DNA of 64,000 bases from a virus, in the IMG/VR virus record IMGVR_UViG_3300031963_000016, positions 32,001-96,000 of that record; one strand, written 5' to 3'. The notes under the pieces are model-generated. The model worked only from the letters and a program-made list of their open reading frames with translations. It was not told the origin of the DNA and made no database searches. Below are positions 13,699-19,242 of the stretch, piece by piece. Both the position numbers and the translations under genes were made by a program. The stretch's first letter is position 1. Every line of letters begins with the position of its first letter.

Positions 13699-14308
13699 AC
13701 AATTTGCTCATCTATTTCCAAGAGCACAAGATCCACAAGGGTGGGTCAATTCAATGAATAATGTATTCCCAACATACGAAATTAATACACCCAATCGTAT
13801 TGCTGCATTCCTGGCACAATGCGGACATGAATCTGGTGGTTGGACAGTATTTGAAGAAAATTTAAACTATTCAGCAAAGGGATTGATGGGTATTTTTAGA
13901 AAGTATTTCCCAACAGAAGATCTAGCGAATGCTTATGCACGACAGCCTATGAAAATTGCCAATCGTGTTTATGCAAATCGTATGGGCAATGGTCCAGAGG
14001 AATCTGGCGACGGATGGTTATATCGTGGTCGTGGACCAATCCAGTTGACTGGAAAAGATAACTATCGTGCATTTGCAAAAGAAATGTTTGAAGATTGGGA
14101 AAATCTTTTTAATAATCCTGATTGGGTAAATGCAGATCGTGAGTTTGCTCTTATGTCTGCTATCTGGTTCTGGAATAAAAATAAATTAAATCGTGAAGCA
14201 GATGCTGGCGATATAAAAACGATGACTCGTAAAATCAATGGTGGTTTTATTGGTCTTGAAGATAGAATTAAACACTACAATGAGGCAATACATTTGCTAC
14301 ACGGATAA
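13685..14308 (+). CDS. Glycoside hydrolase family 19 (chitinase-like) endolysin
   Basis: AAFLAQCGHESG..ENLNYS..YRGRGPIQLTGKDNY..SAIWFW..INGG..GLEDR. Confidence 0.9.
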   Translation: MLTAEQFAHLFPRAQDPQGWVNSMNNVFPTYEINTPNRIAAFLAQCGHESGGWTVFEENLNYSAKGLMGIFRKYFPTEDLANAYARQPMKIANRVYANRMGNGPEESGDGWLYRGRGPIQLTGKDNYRAFAKEMFEDWENLFNNPDWVNADREFALMSAIWFWNKNKLNREADAGDIKTMTRKINGGFIGLEDRIKHYNEAIHLLHG

Positions 14309-14961
14309 TGAAAACATTTATACATCATGATTTACCCAAACTTGAACGTGATACAAAACCCGATGGAACTCGTTTATACAAAACGCCATCGGGTTTGTCC
14401 TATCCAAGCGTCACAACGATTACAGGATTGCTTAACAAGAAAGCAATTTTTGAGTGGCGAAAAAGAGTCGGAGAAGAAGAAGCAAACCGAGTATCATCAA
14501 GAGCATCAAGCAGAGGAACGAAAGTTCACCAACTCTGTGAAGACTATCTCCGTGGAAAACTTAATGAACCAGATATCTTTCATAAAGAAATGTTCGATTC
14601 AATTCGACCACTACTCGACCAAATCGACAACATTCACTGCTTGGAAGATCCACTCTATTCTGACCATCTACAAGTCGCTGGAACAGTTGACTGTATTGCA
14701 GAGTTCCAAGGTAAACTTAGTGTTATAGATTTTAAGACTTCTTCTCGTCCTAAAAGTAGAGATGACATTCACAATTATTTTATGCAAACATCAGCATATG
14801 CAGTCGCCTTTGAGGAACGAACAGGAATTCCTGTAGGACGTATGGTAATTATCATGGCTGTTGAAAATGATGATCCACGTTGGTTTATCGAGAAACGAGA
14901 TAACTGGGTTGCAGGATTTAAAAAACTTAGACTTGACTACAAGCATAAGTATAATGTATAA
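14308..14961 (+). CDS. PD-(D/E)XK exonuclease
   Basis: YPSVTT..RGTKVH..CE..E..L..AGTVD..IDFKTS..Q..AYA. Confidence 0.9.
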   Translation: MKTFIHHDLPKLERDTKPDGTRLYKTPSGLSYPSVTTITGLLNKKAIFEWRKRVGEEEANRVSSRASSRGTKVHQLCEDYLRGKLNEPDIFHKEMFDSIRPLLDQIDNIHCLEDPLYSDHLQVAGTVDCIAEFQGKLSVIDFKTSSRPKSRDDIHNYFMQTSAYAVAFEERTGIPVGRMVIIMAVENDDPRWFIEKRDNWVAGFKKLRLDYKHKYNV

Positions 14962-14962
14962 T
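14933..14962 (+). promoter_or_regulatory. Sigma70-type promoter for the tmRNA precursor
   Basis: TTGACT-N18-TATAAT immediately upstream of the acceptor piece. Confidence 0.55.
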
Positions 14963-14968
14963 AGAGGA

Positions 14969-15281
14969 ATTGCTGTATGAAGCGATGAGAAAGGTGTTCT
15001 GGACGAGGGTTCGATTCCCTCCACCTCCACCAGAAGCATACTAGGACTGGCGTAAGCCATCGTGGGTATAGTTCCTTCCGAGCCACGGATTTAAGTATGC
15101 TTCTGATGGGGGTGACTAGGTTTCGACAGGGCAAGTAGTAACAAAGTGGACAGCACGACAGGCGATCGTCGTAAATGAAGCAAATAAAGTAAACGCAAAT
15201 GATGAGGTTTACGCACTAGCTGCCTAATTAAAAGGTAAGCAGGAGTTTCGGTGGGTTTCTTGGCAACAGAATAACCCACCA
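14969..15281 (+). ncRNA. ssrA: Circularly permuted (two-piece) tmRNA: acceptor piece ~14969-15032, intervening segment 15033-15107, coding piece 15108-~15281; tag ANDEVYALAA at 15195-15227
   Basis: T-arm GAGGG-TTCGATT-CCCTC and CACCTCC-ACCA lie upstream of GGGGGTG-ACTAGGTTTCGAC; acceptor stem with G3.U70; GCA resume codon then ANDEVYALAA-stop. Confidence 0.93.
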
Positions 15282-15295
15282 CTTATGGAGACACA

Positions 15296-16165
15296 ATGGA
15301 AAAATTTTATGTAGATGATTGTCCAAAAGAATTACCAGTAGCAGATTGGATTAAAAGTAAAATAAAATGGAGAGAAGCAACTAATGATGTCATTGCTTCA
15401 TCACCATCTGCAAAATATATGGACATGGTATTTGAATTCACAGGTGATCTGGATGGATTAAAAAAATCTGTGAGTGATGCATTAAGTACTTATGGTTTTT
15501 TTGGATGGAGAACATCAGTAGGTGATGAAAAGAATTATGGTGGATATTCTATAACTTATAATCCAAATCTACAATATGATGACCAGGATATTCATCAACA
15601 CACACTTGGTACTAAATTAAACGCACCAAGTGATTTCTATGCAGGATCGTCAGTAAATCACACGTATTTAAAAAATAGTTATCTTGATGGCATGTCATTC
15701 ACAGAGTTTACTCCAGCAGCAAAGATTGGCTACATGGGAAAATTATTAGAAGATATAAACAGTAGAATTACAATCACAAGAAGCAGATTAGGAATAGTTA
15801 AAGGATCTGAAGTCTCAGATGAAAATAGATATCATATAGATTCAGAAGTGTTTGAATTATGTAGATTGAATATTCCTATTATTGCAAATGAATGTTTTGC
15901 TTTTCAATTTCAAGGTAGATTACCATATGTTTTAGAAGAAGGAAGAGCATATACTTGGCAAACAGAATTACCCCATAGAGTTTATTGTCATAAGAAAACT
16001 AGTCTTGACAGAGCAAATATGGTGATAGGATTATCTCCTTGGTTAAGTTACGATAAACAAGAGAGATATTGGTACGCTAATGAGTTTTATGGAAAGAAAC
16101 ACCCATTTGATATGATTATAGATGGAGATGTTACTGATAAAATAAAATTTTTAGGTGCCAGATAA
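15296..16165 (+). CDS. Asp/Asn beta-hydroxylase-like 2OG-Fe(II) oxygenase
   Basis: YHIDSE...RLNIPI...PHRV...R..MVIG (HxD...H triad pattern). Confidence 0.65.
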   Translation: MEKFYVDDCPKELPVADWIKSKIKWREATNDVIASSPSAKYMDMVFEFTGDLDGLKKSVSDALSTYGFFGWRTSVGDEKNYGGYSITYNPNLQYDDQDIHQHTLGTKLNAPSDFYAGSSVNHTYLKNSYLDGMSFTEFTPAAKIGYMGKLLEDINSRITITRSRLGIVKGSEVSDENRYHIDSEVFELCRLNIPIIANECFAFQFQGRLPYVLEEGRAYTWQTELPHRVYCHKKTSLDRANMVIGLSPWLSYDKQERYWYANEFYGKKHPFDMIIDGDVTDKIKFLGAR

Positions 16166-16280
16166 TGTTAGTGAGTCTTTGCTACACGACAGCAACCGAT
16201 ACCCAATGGTATCTTGTACTGTAATGATAGTGACGAGCTGATAATAGATGTTTAACAATTTCATTAAAAGGAAAAAATAA

Positions 16281-16448
16281 ATGAAAGCATTAATTACAGC
16301 AGTTATGATGACATTTGCATCAATTTCTTTTGCAGCCGATGCTAAAAAAGAAGCACCTAAAAAAGATGCTCCTAAAGCAGAAGTTAAGAAAGATGCTCCA
16401 AAGGCAGAAGTTAAGAAAGATGACAAGAAGCCAGCAGAGAAAAAGTAA
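16281..16448 (+). CDS. Small exported Lys/Ala/Pro-rich protein (not in ORF track)
   Basis: MKALITAVMMTFASISFA signal peptide then ADAKKEAPKKDAPKAEVKKDAPKAEVKKDDKKPAEKK; AAGGA SD; terminator follows. Confidence 0.8.
   Translation: MKALITAVMMTFASISFAADAKKEAPKKDAPKAEVKKDAPKAEVKKDDKKPAEKK
16362..16415 (+). repeat. 27-nt tandem repeat x2 (KDAPKAEVK)
   Basis: aaagatgctcc(t/a)aa(a/g)gcagaagttaag. Confidence 0.85.
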
Positions 16449-16453
16449 TTGAT

Positions 16454-16483
16454 TATTAGTGGGGTTCGCCCCACTAATATTTT
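16454..16483 (+). terminator. Intrinsic terminator
   Basis: TATTAGTGGGG-TTCG-CCCCACTAATA-TTTT. Confidence 0.85.
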
Positions 16484-16490
16484 CATCTTT

Positions 16491-17036
16491 ATGGATTTAA
16501 TAAAGCAATATAAAGAAATGCATAAAGATGAAAATCTTTATGAAGGATCATCTTTAAATATACACAAAGATAATATTCGTCAGTATTTAATTGGTTGTGA
16601 AAGTATTTTAGATTATGGATGTGGTAAAGCGATACAATATTATAAAGAAAAAACTCACGAAACACATTTCTTTGGTATAATGCCATCTCTTTATGACCCA
16701 GCAGTTGAACAATATTCAGTATTACCCGAAGGAACTTTTGATGCTGTTATATGCACAGATGTTCTAGAACATATTGAAGAACAACATGTTGGTAGTATTA
16801 TAAAAGAAATATATTCTAAGGCAAACAAATTCGTTTATCTTGGTATATGTAATATACCAGCAAATTCGTTTCTGCCAGATGGTAGAAATGCACATGTAAC
16901 ACTAAAAGATTTAAAATGGTGGGTAGAGCAAACATTGCCTTATGCAAATATTAAAACCTTAATGTATGTATATGGTAAAGGCAATGGAAAAGCCATTTTA
17001 GATAACTATGAAATTAATATGTTCAAAGACAGATGA
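16491..17036 (+). CDS. Class I SAM-dependent methyltransferase
   Basis: ILDYGCGK...YDP...FDAVICTDVLEHI. Confidence 0.85.
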   Translation: MDLIKQYKEMHKDENLYEGSSLNIHKDNIRQYLIGCESILDYGCGKAIQYYKEKTHETHFFGIMPSLYDPAVEQYSVLPEGTFDAVICTDVLEHIEEQHVGSIIKEIYSKANKFVYLGICNIPANSFLPDGRNAHVTLKDLKWWVEQTLPYANIKTLMYVYGKGNGKAILDNYEINMFKDR

Positions 17037-17527
17037 GAACAGCATTACTTGGAAATGGAAATAGTAGGATTCTTTATGAACCTAATCCTAACAAATATGA
17101 CTATGTTATCGGGTGTAATATTCCCTGGACTACAGTTGATGCTACTGTTATAATGGATGTGAATGTATTAGAAAAGTTTGATACTTTATGGAAATGCTAT
17201 ATCAGTAGAAAAGCGTGGATTGAATGTCCAAATAAAATAAAAGATAAAATAGTTGGATGTGTAATAGGATTATTTGAAACTGTACCTGACTATGATTCTG
17301 CAGGTCACGCTGCTTGTAGAAAATTATTAGAGCTAGGTTCGACTGAAATAGATATATATGGATGTGATTCTTGGTTTACAAACAATACTGATAGTTACAC
17401 TCATCAGTGGATTGATAGTAGATCAATAGATATGAGTAAGAATGTAAGTGTTTGGCGTGCTAGATGGTATGATCTTATTGCTAAACACTCTAATGTTAAG
17501 TTTAATTTTATAGGAGAAACTAAATGA
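17033..17527 (+). CDS. DUF115/MptE or GT29-like nucleotide-binding fold protein
   Basis: ALLGNGNSR...IGCN...SAGHAA...EIDIYGCD. Confidence 0.55.
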   Translation: MRTALLGNGNSRILYEPNPNKYDYVIGCNIPWTTVDATVIMDVNVLEKFDTLWKCYISRKAWIECPNKIKDKIVGCVIGLFETVPDYDSAGHAACRKLLELGSTEIDIYGCDSWFTNNTDSYTHQWIDSRSIDMSKNVSVWRARWYDLIAKHSNVKFNFIGETK

Positions 17528-17724
17528 AGTTACTACTCGGTTCATTAATTATGGCAGTTGCAATTACTGGATTTGCAGCAGAGCCAGCAAAGAAATCAGA
17601 TGCAAAACCAGTGGAAAACACTAATTGCGTAAAGAAAGATAAAGATGGTAAGTGTCCTCCACTACCAAAAGGTGATAAACCAACACCAAAAGCACCAGCC
17701 AAAAAGGAAGAAGCAAAGAAGTAA
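17524..17724 (+). CDS. Small exported Lys/Pro/Ala-rich protein with C-x8-C
   Basis: Signal peptide ending GFA, then AEPAKK...CVKKDKDGKCPP... Confidence 0.75.
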   Translation: MKLLLGSLIMAVAITGFAAEPAKKSDAKPVENTNCVKKDKDGKCPPLPKGDKPTPKAPAKKEEAKK

Positions 17725-17727
17725 TTC

Positions 17728-17734
17728 CTAAATA
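17728..17734 (+). promoter_or_regulatory. Late promoter variant
   Basis: CTAAATA in the intergenic gap. Confidence 0.5.
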
Positions 17735-17818
17735 ATATATCCAGAGATGGATCGTGGTTGGAGGCAACCACGTTAAAAACCTTCATTACACACAACTCAT
17801 AACACACAAGGAGTAAAC

Positions 17819-18097
17819 ATGAGTAACTTGACCCCGTTCGAGATTCGCCTAGAACTATTAAAAATGGCGAAAGATATGCTTAACGATGACTATTATGGTA
17901 AGCGTGAAGTAATCAGCAACGAGTGGCAGATGAAAATTGAATCTGCTAGACTCAATGGGGGTGCGATGCCTGAACATCCAGGATTCCCACCATATCCATC
18001 AGAAACAGAAATCATTGCTAAAGCACAAGTGCTAAATGGTTTTGTTTCAAATATTCCCACTAATACATTAGAAAAGACTAGCAAAAAGTCCACCTGA
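17819..18097 (+). CDS. Conserved T4-like phage protein (PFEIRLELLKMA motif)
   Basis: AAGGAG SD; recognisable motif. Confidence 0.75.
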   Translation: MSNLTPFEIRLELLKMAKDMLNDDYYGKREVISNEWQMKIESARLNGGAMPEHPGFPPYPSETEIIAKAQVLNGFVSNIPTNTLEKTSKKST

Positions 18098-18157
18098 TAG
18101 GGATCGGGCAGAGGGATATTGCATTCCTCTGCCTCTAACTGAAATAAGGAGATCAAT

Positions 18158-18682
18158 ATGCGAATAAGAATCTATTCAATATTAATATTATTTTCAATAA
18201 GTTTTTCAATTATATTATATTCATATTTGTTTTTTAACGAGACAACAAAAGTTCTTAATATAGAACTGTCACAATTAACCAAAGACGCTAAGCAACAAGT
18301 TATTTGCTTGGCTGATAATATCTATCATGAAGCAGGATATGAACCTGAGAAGGGTAAGATTGCAGTTGCTCTTGTAACATTGAATAGAGTGCAAGATCCA
18401 CGATACCCAAAAGATATTTGCTCTGTAGTGAAACAAAAGGTAAACTATACATGTCAATTCACATGGTGGTGCGAAAATAAAATCACTAACAGAGAAAAAA
18501 TTGCATATGAAAAATCTAAAGAAGTTGCATTATATGTTTATGCAAATTATGAAAAAATAAAAGACTTCACAAATGGAGCATTGTTTTATCATGCTGATTA
18601 TGTTCGTCCGAATTGGAGAGGTTTAGAAAAAACCGCTGTAATAGGTAGACATATTTTTTATAAAGAGAAAGAAAAGTTATAA
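18158..18682 (+). CDS. Cell wall hydrolase, SleB/Hydrolase_2 family, N-terminal TM anchor
   Basis: CLADNIYHEAG..AVALVTLNRV..CQFTW..ALFYHADYV.P.W..IGRHIFY. Confidence 0.9.
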   Translation: MRIRIYSILILFSISFSIILYSYLFFNETTKVLNIELSQLTKDAKQQVICLADNIYHEAGYEPEKGKIAVALVTLNRVQDPRYPKDICSVVKQKVNYTCQFTWWCENKITNREKIAYEKSKEVALYVYANYEKIKDFTNGALFYHADYVRPNWRGLEKTAVIGRHIFYKEKEKL

Positions 18683-19242
18683 TGTTAAACAAATTGAACA
18701 TTCAACTTAAAGAATCGCCAGATGCACAGCATTCCTTCTTTTTGTTGATGGAAGAAATATCATTAACTTCTGCTAAGCAAGTTGTTGAATGGATTTTTGA
18801 AACGAACTTTCAAGAAGAAAGACCAGACTTGCTTAATCTTATAATCACATCTCCAGGTGGTGATCTTAACGCAGCATTTGCTATGATTGATGCGATGAGA
18901 GGTTCTGCTGTTCCAATTAGAACAATTGGATTGGGACAGATTGCTTCTGCAGGTCTTATGGTTTTTATTGCTGGAGAAAAGGGAAGTCGTATTCTAACAC
19001 CAAACACATCAATTCTAAGTCACCAGTATTCTTGGGGTGCTTTTGGTAAAGAACACGAATTATTCGCAACTGTCAAAGAGTTCGATTTAACCACAAAGAA
19101 AATGATTACACACTATAAAAAGTGTACTGGTCTTAATGAGAAAAGAATTAGAGATGTTCTTCTCCCACCTCAAGACATATGGTTAAGTCCTCAAGAGGCA
19201 AAAGATATGGGGCTATGCGATGCAATTAAAGAATTATCTTAA
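18682..19242 (+). CDS. clpP: ClpP-like protease subunit
   Basis: ITSPGGD, IASAG (Ser), SHQ (His), DIWL..EA..MGLCD. Confidence 0.85.
   Translation: MLNKLNIQLKESPDAQHSFFLLMEEISLTSAKQVVEWIFETNFQEERPDLLNLIITSPGGDLNAAFAMIDAMRGSAVPIRTIGLGQIASAGLMVFIAGEKGSRILTPNTSILSHQYSWGAFGKEHELFATVKEFDLTTKKMITHYKKCTGLNEKRIRDVLLPPQDIWLSPQEAKDMGLCDAIKELS

Follow-up and report, generated by a model that had tools for sequence, protein, structure and literature searches.

The stretch of DNA analysed here (the window; 64,000 nt) corresponds to bases 32001-96000 of a 161,711-bp viral record, which has direct terminal repeats and is rated complete. Its plus strand carries, at 14969-15283, an ssrA gene in permuted order: the acceptor piece comes first and is followed by an intervening segment and the coding piece, as can be read directly from the sequence (Table 1). 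The gene lies among phage genes for PhoH, a lysin, a PD-(D/E)XK nuclease and a cell-wall hydrolase, and the order PhoH, lysin, nuclease, ssrA is common to the window and its relatives. A ClpP gene is located 3.4 kb downstream.

Table 1. Features of the ssrA locus in window coordinates.
Feature	Position	Strand	Evidence or remark
PD-(D/E)XK nuclease gene	14308..14961	+	PHROG 298 exonuclease, E = 6e-74; Pfam PDDEXK_1
Sigma-70-type (T4 early-type) promoter, predicted	14933..14962	+	TTGACT 14933-14938, 18-nt spacer, TATAAT 14957-14962
Acceptor piece, ~64 nt	14969..15032	+	Direct reading, ARAGORN, Rfam
Outer helix, 5' strand	14971-14976	+	Within acceptor piece
P2a, 5' strand	14995-15001	+	Within acceptor piece
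T-arm GAGGG-TTCGATT-CCCTC	15005-15021	+	Direct reading; covariation
Acceptor 3' strand CACCTCC	15022-15028	+	Followed by encoded ACCA, 15029-15032
Intervening segment, 75 nt	15033..15107	+	Presumably excised; contains no ORF
Spacer closing stem, 10 bp	15033-15042 with 15094-15103	+	Followed by UGAU; covariation, fold
Coding piece, ~176 nt	15108..15283	+	Direct reading, ARAGORN, Rfam, covariation, fold
Acceptor 5' strand GGGGGUG, then D-loop analogue	15108-15114	+	Within coding piece
P2a, 3' strand	15127-15133	+	Within coding piece
Outer helix, 3' strand	15150-15155	+	Within coding piece
Small hairpin at the PK1 position	15156-15171	+	Within coding piece
Tag frame GCA...TAA, ANDEVYALAA	15195..15227	+	ARAGORN; peptide-level conservation
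3' hairpin, 8-bp stem GGUGGGUU/AACCCACC, conserved 15-nt loop UCUUGGCAACAGAAU	15250..15280	+	Covariation
Next gene, 289 aa	15296..16165	+	No Pfam or PHROG family match; RBS GGAG 8 nt past the hairpin
Cell-wall hydrolase gene	18158-18682	+	Directly before the ClpP gene
ClpP-like protease gene	18682..19242	+	Pfam CLP_protease, 102.8 bits

Architecture of the permuted ssrA gene

The original prediction, made from the letters alone, placed the 3' half of a tRNA-like domain before its 5' half, and the sequence agrees: the encoded ACCA ends at 15032 and GGGGGTG starts at 15108. These two parts form a 7-bp acceptor stem (GGGGGTG/CACCTCC) with G3.U70 and the discriminator A, each of which is present as described. 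The two pieces can be joined by the predicted cross-piece helices, P2a (UGUUCUG 14995-15001 with CAGGGCA 15127-15133) and the outer helix (UGCUGU 14971-14976 with ACAGCA 15150-15155). The resume codon GCA opens the tag frame ANDEVYALAA, which is closed by TAA (15195-15227), and ARAGORN reads the same tag; applied to the whole 64-kb window, the program reports a single gene, a permuted tmRNA. The gene matches the Rfam models beta_tmRNA (RF01850; 137.3 bits against a gathering score of 84, E = 9e-42, model positions 1-331) and tmRNA_permuted (RF04321; 149.8 bits against a gathering score of 47, E = 1e-29, model positions 1-213), so that both of the tools proposed as checks call a two-piece tmRNA. 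For the subtype call, lower-scoring overlapping families of the tmRNA clan were dropped, which left RF01850 as the best-scoring family. In control runs, the phages Melnitz and HTVC008M were assigned to the alpha model, and the window to RF01850. A permissive Rfam rescan of the ssrA stretch, spacer included, detected no further RNA family.

The gene matches the RF01850 model from end to end and departs from it at two places only: a 2-bp segment in the inter-piece stem, and the terminator hairpin, which is deleted. The PK1 position is occupied by a plain 4-bp hairpin, which matches the Rfam consensus. The minimum-free-energy fold of the precursor (z = -3.4) recovers the T-arm, the acceptor stem, the 10-bp stem that closes the spacer and the outer helix. 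Judged by these features, the window holds a real, intact and apparently functional circularly permuted ssrA of the betaproteobacterial type. The tag had been judged to look beta- or gammaproteobacterial; the beta type is upheld by the RF01850 match, and the tag itself is an ordinary ANDxxYALAA as in Burkholderiales. Unlike members of the RF01850 subtype, the gene does not lie on a betaproteobacterial (GTDB Burkholderiales) chromosome and has no terminator hairpin of its own; it is a phage copy, which would work as this subtype does and apparently descended from it or alongside it.

The gene had also been described as minimal, with no room for the PK2-PK4 region. The first description does not hold: the gene is not specially minimal because bacterial two-piece tmRNAs of the beta type have the same total size (without the spacer, the ARAGORN span is 304 nt in the window and 302 nt in the bacterial beta-type gene L053), and its length and architecture are those of the Rfam beta_tmRNA family overall. 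The second is half right, since the 3' domain is reduced but not absent, with a covarying 8-bp hairpin at 15250-15280. The reduction of PK2-PK4 is a trait of the beta family and not peculiar to the window gene. The 8-bp hairpin is possibly part of a pseudoknot. A pseudoknot after the tag, in which the 3' loop would pair with AGGA (15241-15244), is not established, because partners slid along the alignment score about as well (82% of cells could pair, compared with 87%).

The predicted TTGACT-N18-TATAAT promoter is present before the gene, with 11 of 12 consensus matches and a predicted start at ~14969, although a scan yields about equal numbers of sites in shuffled sequence and the match by itself proves little. 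The promoter call therefore rests on position and on recurrence in relatives. A strong promoter is found at equal distance in seven loci (L004, L007, L009, L011, L012, L022 and the window), and the -35/-10 consensus of the Rfam beta_tmRNA model itself aligns onto the window promoter. Upstream of ssrA, about one third of the relatives have a strong promoter and five more have weaker versions; about half have no promoter of their own, and ssrA there follows an ORF stop or a tRNA. No terminator was found between the 3' hairpin and the next gene, and the terminator positions of the Rfam model are deleted. Since the gene has no terminator and abuts the RBS of the next gene, its 3' end must come from processing of a longer transcript.

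The carrier phage and its relatives

The carrier is a complete T4-like freshwater phage, in all likelihood lytic, in the neighbourhood of HTVC008M and Melnitz. Its genome contains a T4 gp23 match of 471 bits; among cultured phages, the capsid protein is most similar to those of the Pelagibacter phage HTVC008M (68.3%) and the Methylophilales phage Melnitz (68.7%). Neither SmpB nor an integrase was found in the complete phage genome. Freshwater and aquaculture metagenomes contain near-identical DNA, as do runs that bear the label 'fungus metagenome'; at least 93% of the sampled words are present in 14 runs, which belong to 13 studies and of which six may represent the source sample. Some 20 kb upstream of ssrA lie 17 or more tRNA genes. 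Their array (G000:C1:24963-28034, L002), ~4 kb before the window start, comprises 17 genes, among them three for tRNA-Met and three for tRNA-Leu and none for tRNA-Ala.

In IMG/VR, a pattern scan retrieved 24 viral contigs in which the gene is laid out as in the window and the spacer measures 57-79 nt. Of these, 23 contain a permuted tmRNA according to ARAGORN, and its tag has the ANDxxxALAA form; the tag of L020 is identical to that of the window. The nearest viral relative shares 82% identity over the mature parts. The slot of ssrA stays constant, although divergence has left the adjacent nuclease with identities of 38-81% among the phages concerned. On the other side of the gene, the content between ssrA and the hydrolase (15296-18157, plus strand) varies among the relatives: the 289-aa ORF at 15296-16165 has no homologue in the 24 related loci, and a methyltransferase-like ORF at 16449-17036 was not found in them either.

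The window and its 24 relatives were combined into an alignment of 25 phage sequences (A1), which was scored for the structure as read from the window. Changes on both sides are seen in 33 of the 53 pairs, a number reached in none of 500 shuffles, and 88.9% of cells pair, compared with 40-54% when the partners are slid by 1-3 columns. P2a is paired in 99.4% of cells and has both-side changes in five of its seven pairs; the outer helix is paired in 89.9% and has such changes in three of six. Both-side changes further affect three of five pairs in the T-arm, seven of eight in the 3' hairpin (15250-15280) and all ten in the spacer closing stem. The acceptor stem does not vary among the relatives, solely because the scan pattern fixed it. 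Covariation among homologues, which the original prediction had named as a test, is thus present in the inter-piece helices, the T-arm, the closing stem and the 3' hairpin. The 24 covarying relatives provide a clean alignment for the window's phage family.

The tag is under selection as a peptide. Among 16 distinct phage tag sequences, the amino acid never varies at positions 1-3 and 9-10, while the codons vary synonymously; position 7 is Ala in 15 of the 16, and only Tyr, Phe or Trp occurs at position 6. The codon variation includes GAT and GAC at 10:6, four Leu codons and three to four Ala codons. Together with gene identity and covariation, the selection on the tag supports the central proposal of a phage-encoded, apparently functional permuted ssrA.

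The spacers of the phage genes (57-79 nt) are closed by a stem in all members of A1 and are about twice as long as the bacterial ones (21-44 nt), a modestly new point. Eight relatives (L003, L007, L009, L013, L014, L015, L018 and L022) have a near-identical spacer interior (...CCGAGUnUUCUGGnAGCAAACACGAAAGUGGCAAU..., columns 80-145 of A1), which is kept despite differing tags and flanking helices; the interior of the window spacer is unrelated. Why a segment that is presumably discarded should be so conserved is unexplained.

Several relatives carry variants of the gene. An insertion of 25-70 nt between the small hairpin and the tag (columns 245-305 of A1) occurs in L005, L009, L010, L012, L014, L015, L018, L020 and L024; the inserted sequence (GGAUUGGGG...CUCGG) may restore a PK1-like pseudoknot, which is missing in the window and in the Rfam beta consensus. 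In L019 and L026, the tmRNA comes directly after the 3' end of a tRNA-like sequence (GGTTCGAATCC...), with neither promoter nor ORF there, and ssrA is located within a tRNA cluster, as in the Stenotrophomonas phage Marzo. In L022 (7569-7892), the acceptor piece, the spacer and the 5' half of the tRNA-like domain are kept, with no recognisable tag frame and no tmRNA called by ARAGORN. The L022 gene may be decayed or a derivative that consists of the tRNA-like domain (TLD) only.

Bacterial and phage two-piece tmRNAs

A betaproteobacterial two-piece tmRNA was reportedly described by Sharkady and Williams in 2004. The window gene resembles bacterial RF01850 tmRNAs in its promoter-like 5' flank, in the PK1-position hairpin, in a tag of the form ANDE..A.AA and in the 3' hairpin, loop motif included; the loop UCUUGGCAACAGAAU is common to bacterial beta-type genes, HTVC008M and Melnitz. 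In contrast to the bacterial genes, it is borne by a phage, is at most 64% identical to them over the mature parts, has a spacer of 75 nt as opposed to 21-44 nt, and runs straight into a protein gene with no terminator hairpin. A blastn search of the window gene against 401 Burkholderiales genomes gave best matches of 72-75% identity over ~120 nt and no close bacterial donor, and a donor among these genomes is rejected in view of the ≤64% identity over the mature parts. Two Burkholderiales genomes, G399 (1.9 Mb) and G249 (2.3 Mb), encode the tag ANDESYALAA and the same loop as the window (CUUGGCAACAGAA), in loci with a GC content of about 44-45%. The streamlined Burkholderiales genomes of 1.2-1.5 Mb have one-piece tmRNAs. 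None of the conclusions depends on genome G383, which is flagged as unpublished. When phage and bacterial beta-type tmRNAs are placed in one tree, its basal branches have weak support (63/76), long-branch attraction is present, and three changes of the phage label are required. A mosaic origin, in which the 3' domain would come from a phage lineage and the tRNA-like domain would be of host type, is not supported: segment identities are noisy, and the loop motif is also found in bacterial beta-type genes.

The original prediction implied novelty, and on this point it is overtaken by the literature. Two-piece ssrA is a known kind of phage gene, and ARAGORN and Rfam find the window gene directly. 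The OM43 phage Melnitz carries a two-piece ssrA (Buchholz et al., 2022; PMC9004378), which reportedly lies behind an early promoter and shares a transcript with the gene that follows. Among 133 unique tmRNAs in 18,146 phage genomes, 53 from cultured phages were called two-piece by ARAGORN (50 aquatic), permuted tmRNAs were present in 17 of 47 Melnitz-like contigs, and Table S1 of that study lists the Stenotrophomonas phages Mendera and Moby, which are among the 53, as permuted (PMC9004378). The 2025 tmRNA database of 97,179 sequences, the source of the RF04321 model, counts 79 from phages (PMC11915505). For annotation, the window gene is ordinary; to the aquatic phages already published as having a two-piece tmRNA of their own, it contributes a well-supported freshwater case of the beta type.

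Melnitz and HTVC008M (Kyanoviridae) are the same kind of phage as the carrier, a T4-like myophage of Kyanoviridae type, with major capsid proteins that are 68-69% identical to its own, and their ssrA occupies the same early-region slot after PhoH and the PD-(D/E)XK nuclease. The nuclease gene lies just upstream of ssrA in HTVC008M, as in the window; the order in Melnitz is PhoH, a small ORF, the nuclease, two small ORFs and ssrA. All three genes are permuted and have a stem-closed spacer followed by UGAU and a similar 3' hairpin loop motif. The Melnitz and window genes are further alike in having no terminator of their own, and the early-type promoter proposed for Melnitz (PMC9004378) corresponds to the sigma-70-type site upstream in the window. 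Despite these likenesses, Melnitz and HTVC008M score with alpha_tmRNA (RF01849; 106.7 and 83.8 bits), have an alpha-like T-loop and encode the tags ANDNYVPVDYALAA and ANFNEYALAA, whereas the window gene scores with beta_tmRNA (RF01850), has the canonical UUCGAUU T-loop and encodes ANDEVYALAA. Melnitz also has a glutamine riboswitch after ssrA (L086:1886-1934; RF01739, 52.8 bits, confirmed by Rfam); the Rfam scan found none after the window ssrA. The window clade differs further in being freshwater and in having a ClpP gene nearby.

The same beta type occurs in an unrelated phage lineage with a different host and a higher GC content, the Stenotrophomonas phages of Menderavirus (Marzo, Mendera, Moby, IME-SM1, YB07 and others), whose GenBank entries label the gene tmRNA or ssrA. 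The Marzo gene scores 94.6 bits with RF01850 and 119 bits with RF04321 and is called a permuted tmRNA (tmRNA*) by ARAGORN. It differs from the window gene in its tag (VAANDDSYTVRIAA), in its spacer of 125 nt and in its location inside a tRNA cluster, and the two are alignable over a stretch of only 65 nt, with 80% identity. In the tree, Marzo forms a long branch that groups with Azoarcus-type sequences.

All freshwater relatives tested score as beta_tmRNA. One slot thus holds two types, alpha in Melnitz and HTVC008M and beta in the freshwater clade, which is modestly new. The difference may reflect replacement in place or divergence; the base of the tree is weak and segment identities are noisy. 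A search of 301 sampled genomes for alphaproteobacterial relatives of the HTVC008M gene gave 0 matches at E = 1e-6 or better and is uninformative.

Possible role during infection

We consider it likely that this functional beta-type permuted ssrA serves a lytic T4-like freshwater phage by topping up ribosome rescue. Its biochemical steps (transcription, processing, charging and tagging) are modelled on the established tmRNA pathway, and the benefit to the phage is likewise put forward conditionally. The early sigma-70-type promoter would give rise to one precursor RNA from ~14969. Host tRNA-processing enzymes would remove the stem-closed 75-nt spacer: RNase P would cut at G15108, and the acceptor piece would be trimmed at its 3' end as far as the encoded CCA (15032); the resulting pieces of ~64 and ~176 nt would be held together by the acceptor stem and the two inter-piece helices. 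The 3' end would arise by cleavage of a longer early transcript, as proposed for Melnitz. Host AlaRS, whose compatibility is assumed, would charge the RNA via G3.U70. The phage tmRNA must rely on host SmpB because the phage genome encodes none, and the complete genome supports the original prediction here. Host SmpB, again assumed to be compatible, would deliver the RNA to stalled ribosomes, where resumption at GCA would add ANDEVYALAA. This tag would act as a ClpXP-type degron, the tagged product being degraded by Clp-type proteases, and the phage would in this way add to rescue in the infected cell and help to clear truncated proteins. The plain hairpin at the PK1 position, the absent terminator and the lack of a promoter in about half of the relatives count against this reading. 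The original prediction also suggested that the RNA might resist cleavage of host tmRNA or tRNA, or might retag stalled proteins.

A second reading, which overlaps with this one, makes ribosome rescue secondary and degradation the purpose: the tmRNA would tag proteins on stalled ribosomes, and the phage ClpP, working on host ClpX or ClpA, would degrade them. Many targets would be host proteins, as host mRNA is degraded, and their amino acids would be recycled for virions in a nutrient-poor freshwater host. Aligned with a solved ClpP (3q7h), the phage ClpP has a Ser and a His at the catalytic motifs, and it has an Asp at what we take to be the position of the third catalytic residue. In 12 related loci, a pair of hydrolase and ClpP genes follows ssrA at a distance of 1-4 kb, and the closest subclade retains this ClpP; the tag still ends in ALAA and is aromatic at position 6. 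Amino-acid recycling has been proposed for Melnitz as well (PMC9004378). Gene neighbourhood alone, however, is weak evidence. ClpP was not detected in a second tmRNA-bearing subclade (L010, L012 and L014), in the short loci L013 and L020, or next to ssrA in Melnitz; because the second subclade and the Melnitz locus have no detected ClpP, the pairing of ssrA and ClpP is not obligatory. A tag-and-degrade module run by the phage is conceivable, and we regard it as unlikely.

Within one family of aquatic T4-like myophages, the fixed early-region slot itself could be viewed as the place of an exchangeable rescue cassette, which would be swapped to match the SmpB or the processing enzymes of the host, and which the freshwater clade would pair with ClpP for tagging and degradation. 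On this view the cassette is of the alpha type in the marine phages of SAR11 and OM43 and of the beta type in the freshwater clade; as a full account we think it decidedly improbable. Related phages that use one ssrA slot for different permuted types, with the nearest subclade keeping ClpP nearby, have comparative value; they raise the questions of whether phages tune ribosome rescue to the host and whether they couple rescue to proteolysis.

A TLD-only tmRNA-like RNA of mycobacteriophage DS6A has been proposed to act as a decoy, and a TLD-only molecule strongly inhibits tmRNA (PMC4131195). The window RNA could similarly soak up host SmpB or sit unproductively on stalled ribosomes and so block host trans-translation, and the phage has no SmpB of its own. 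Against this role, the tag frame is complete from resume codon to stop, and throughout the family purifying selection preserves it as a peptide, which would be superfluous for a decoy; we consider the decoy very unlikely. Hardly credible is a passenger from a host or an attachment-site remnant with no role in infection: phages that integrate into ssrA often bear ssrA fragments (PMC9004378), but this gene is complete, sits in a T4-like phage without integrase, is at most 64% identical to the nearest bacterial tmRNA found, keeps one slot beside a nuclease that has diverged to 38-81% identity, and has a structure that is maintained, as the covariation in A1 indicates.

Four metatranscriptome runs were compared with 14900-15400. 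The matching contigs are only 88-95% alike, over the conserved tRNA-like parts; they come from relatives or from host tmRNAs, and RNA libraries can contain DNA. One of them, a 199-nt RNA contig of a relative, starts 3 nt before the predicted mature 5' end, which we note as a curiosity only.
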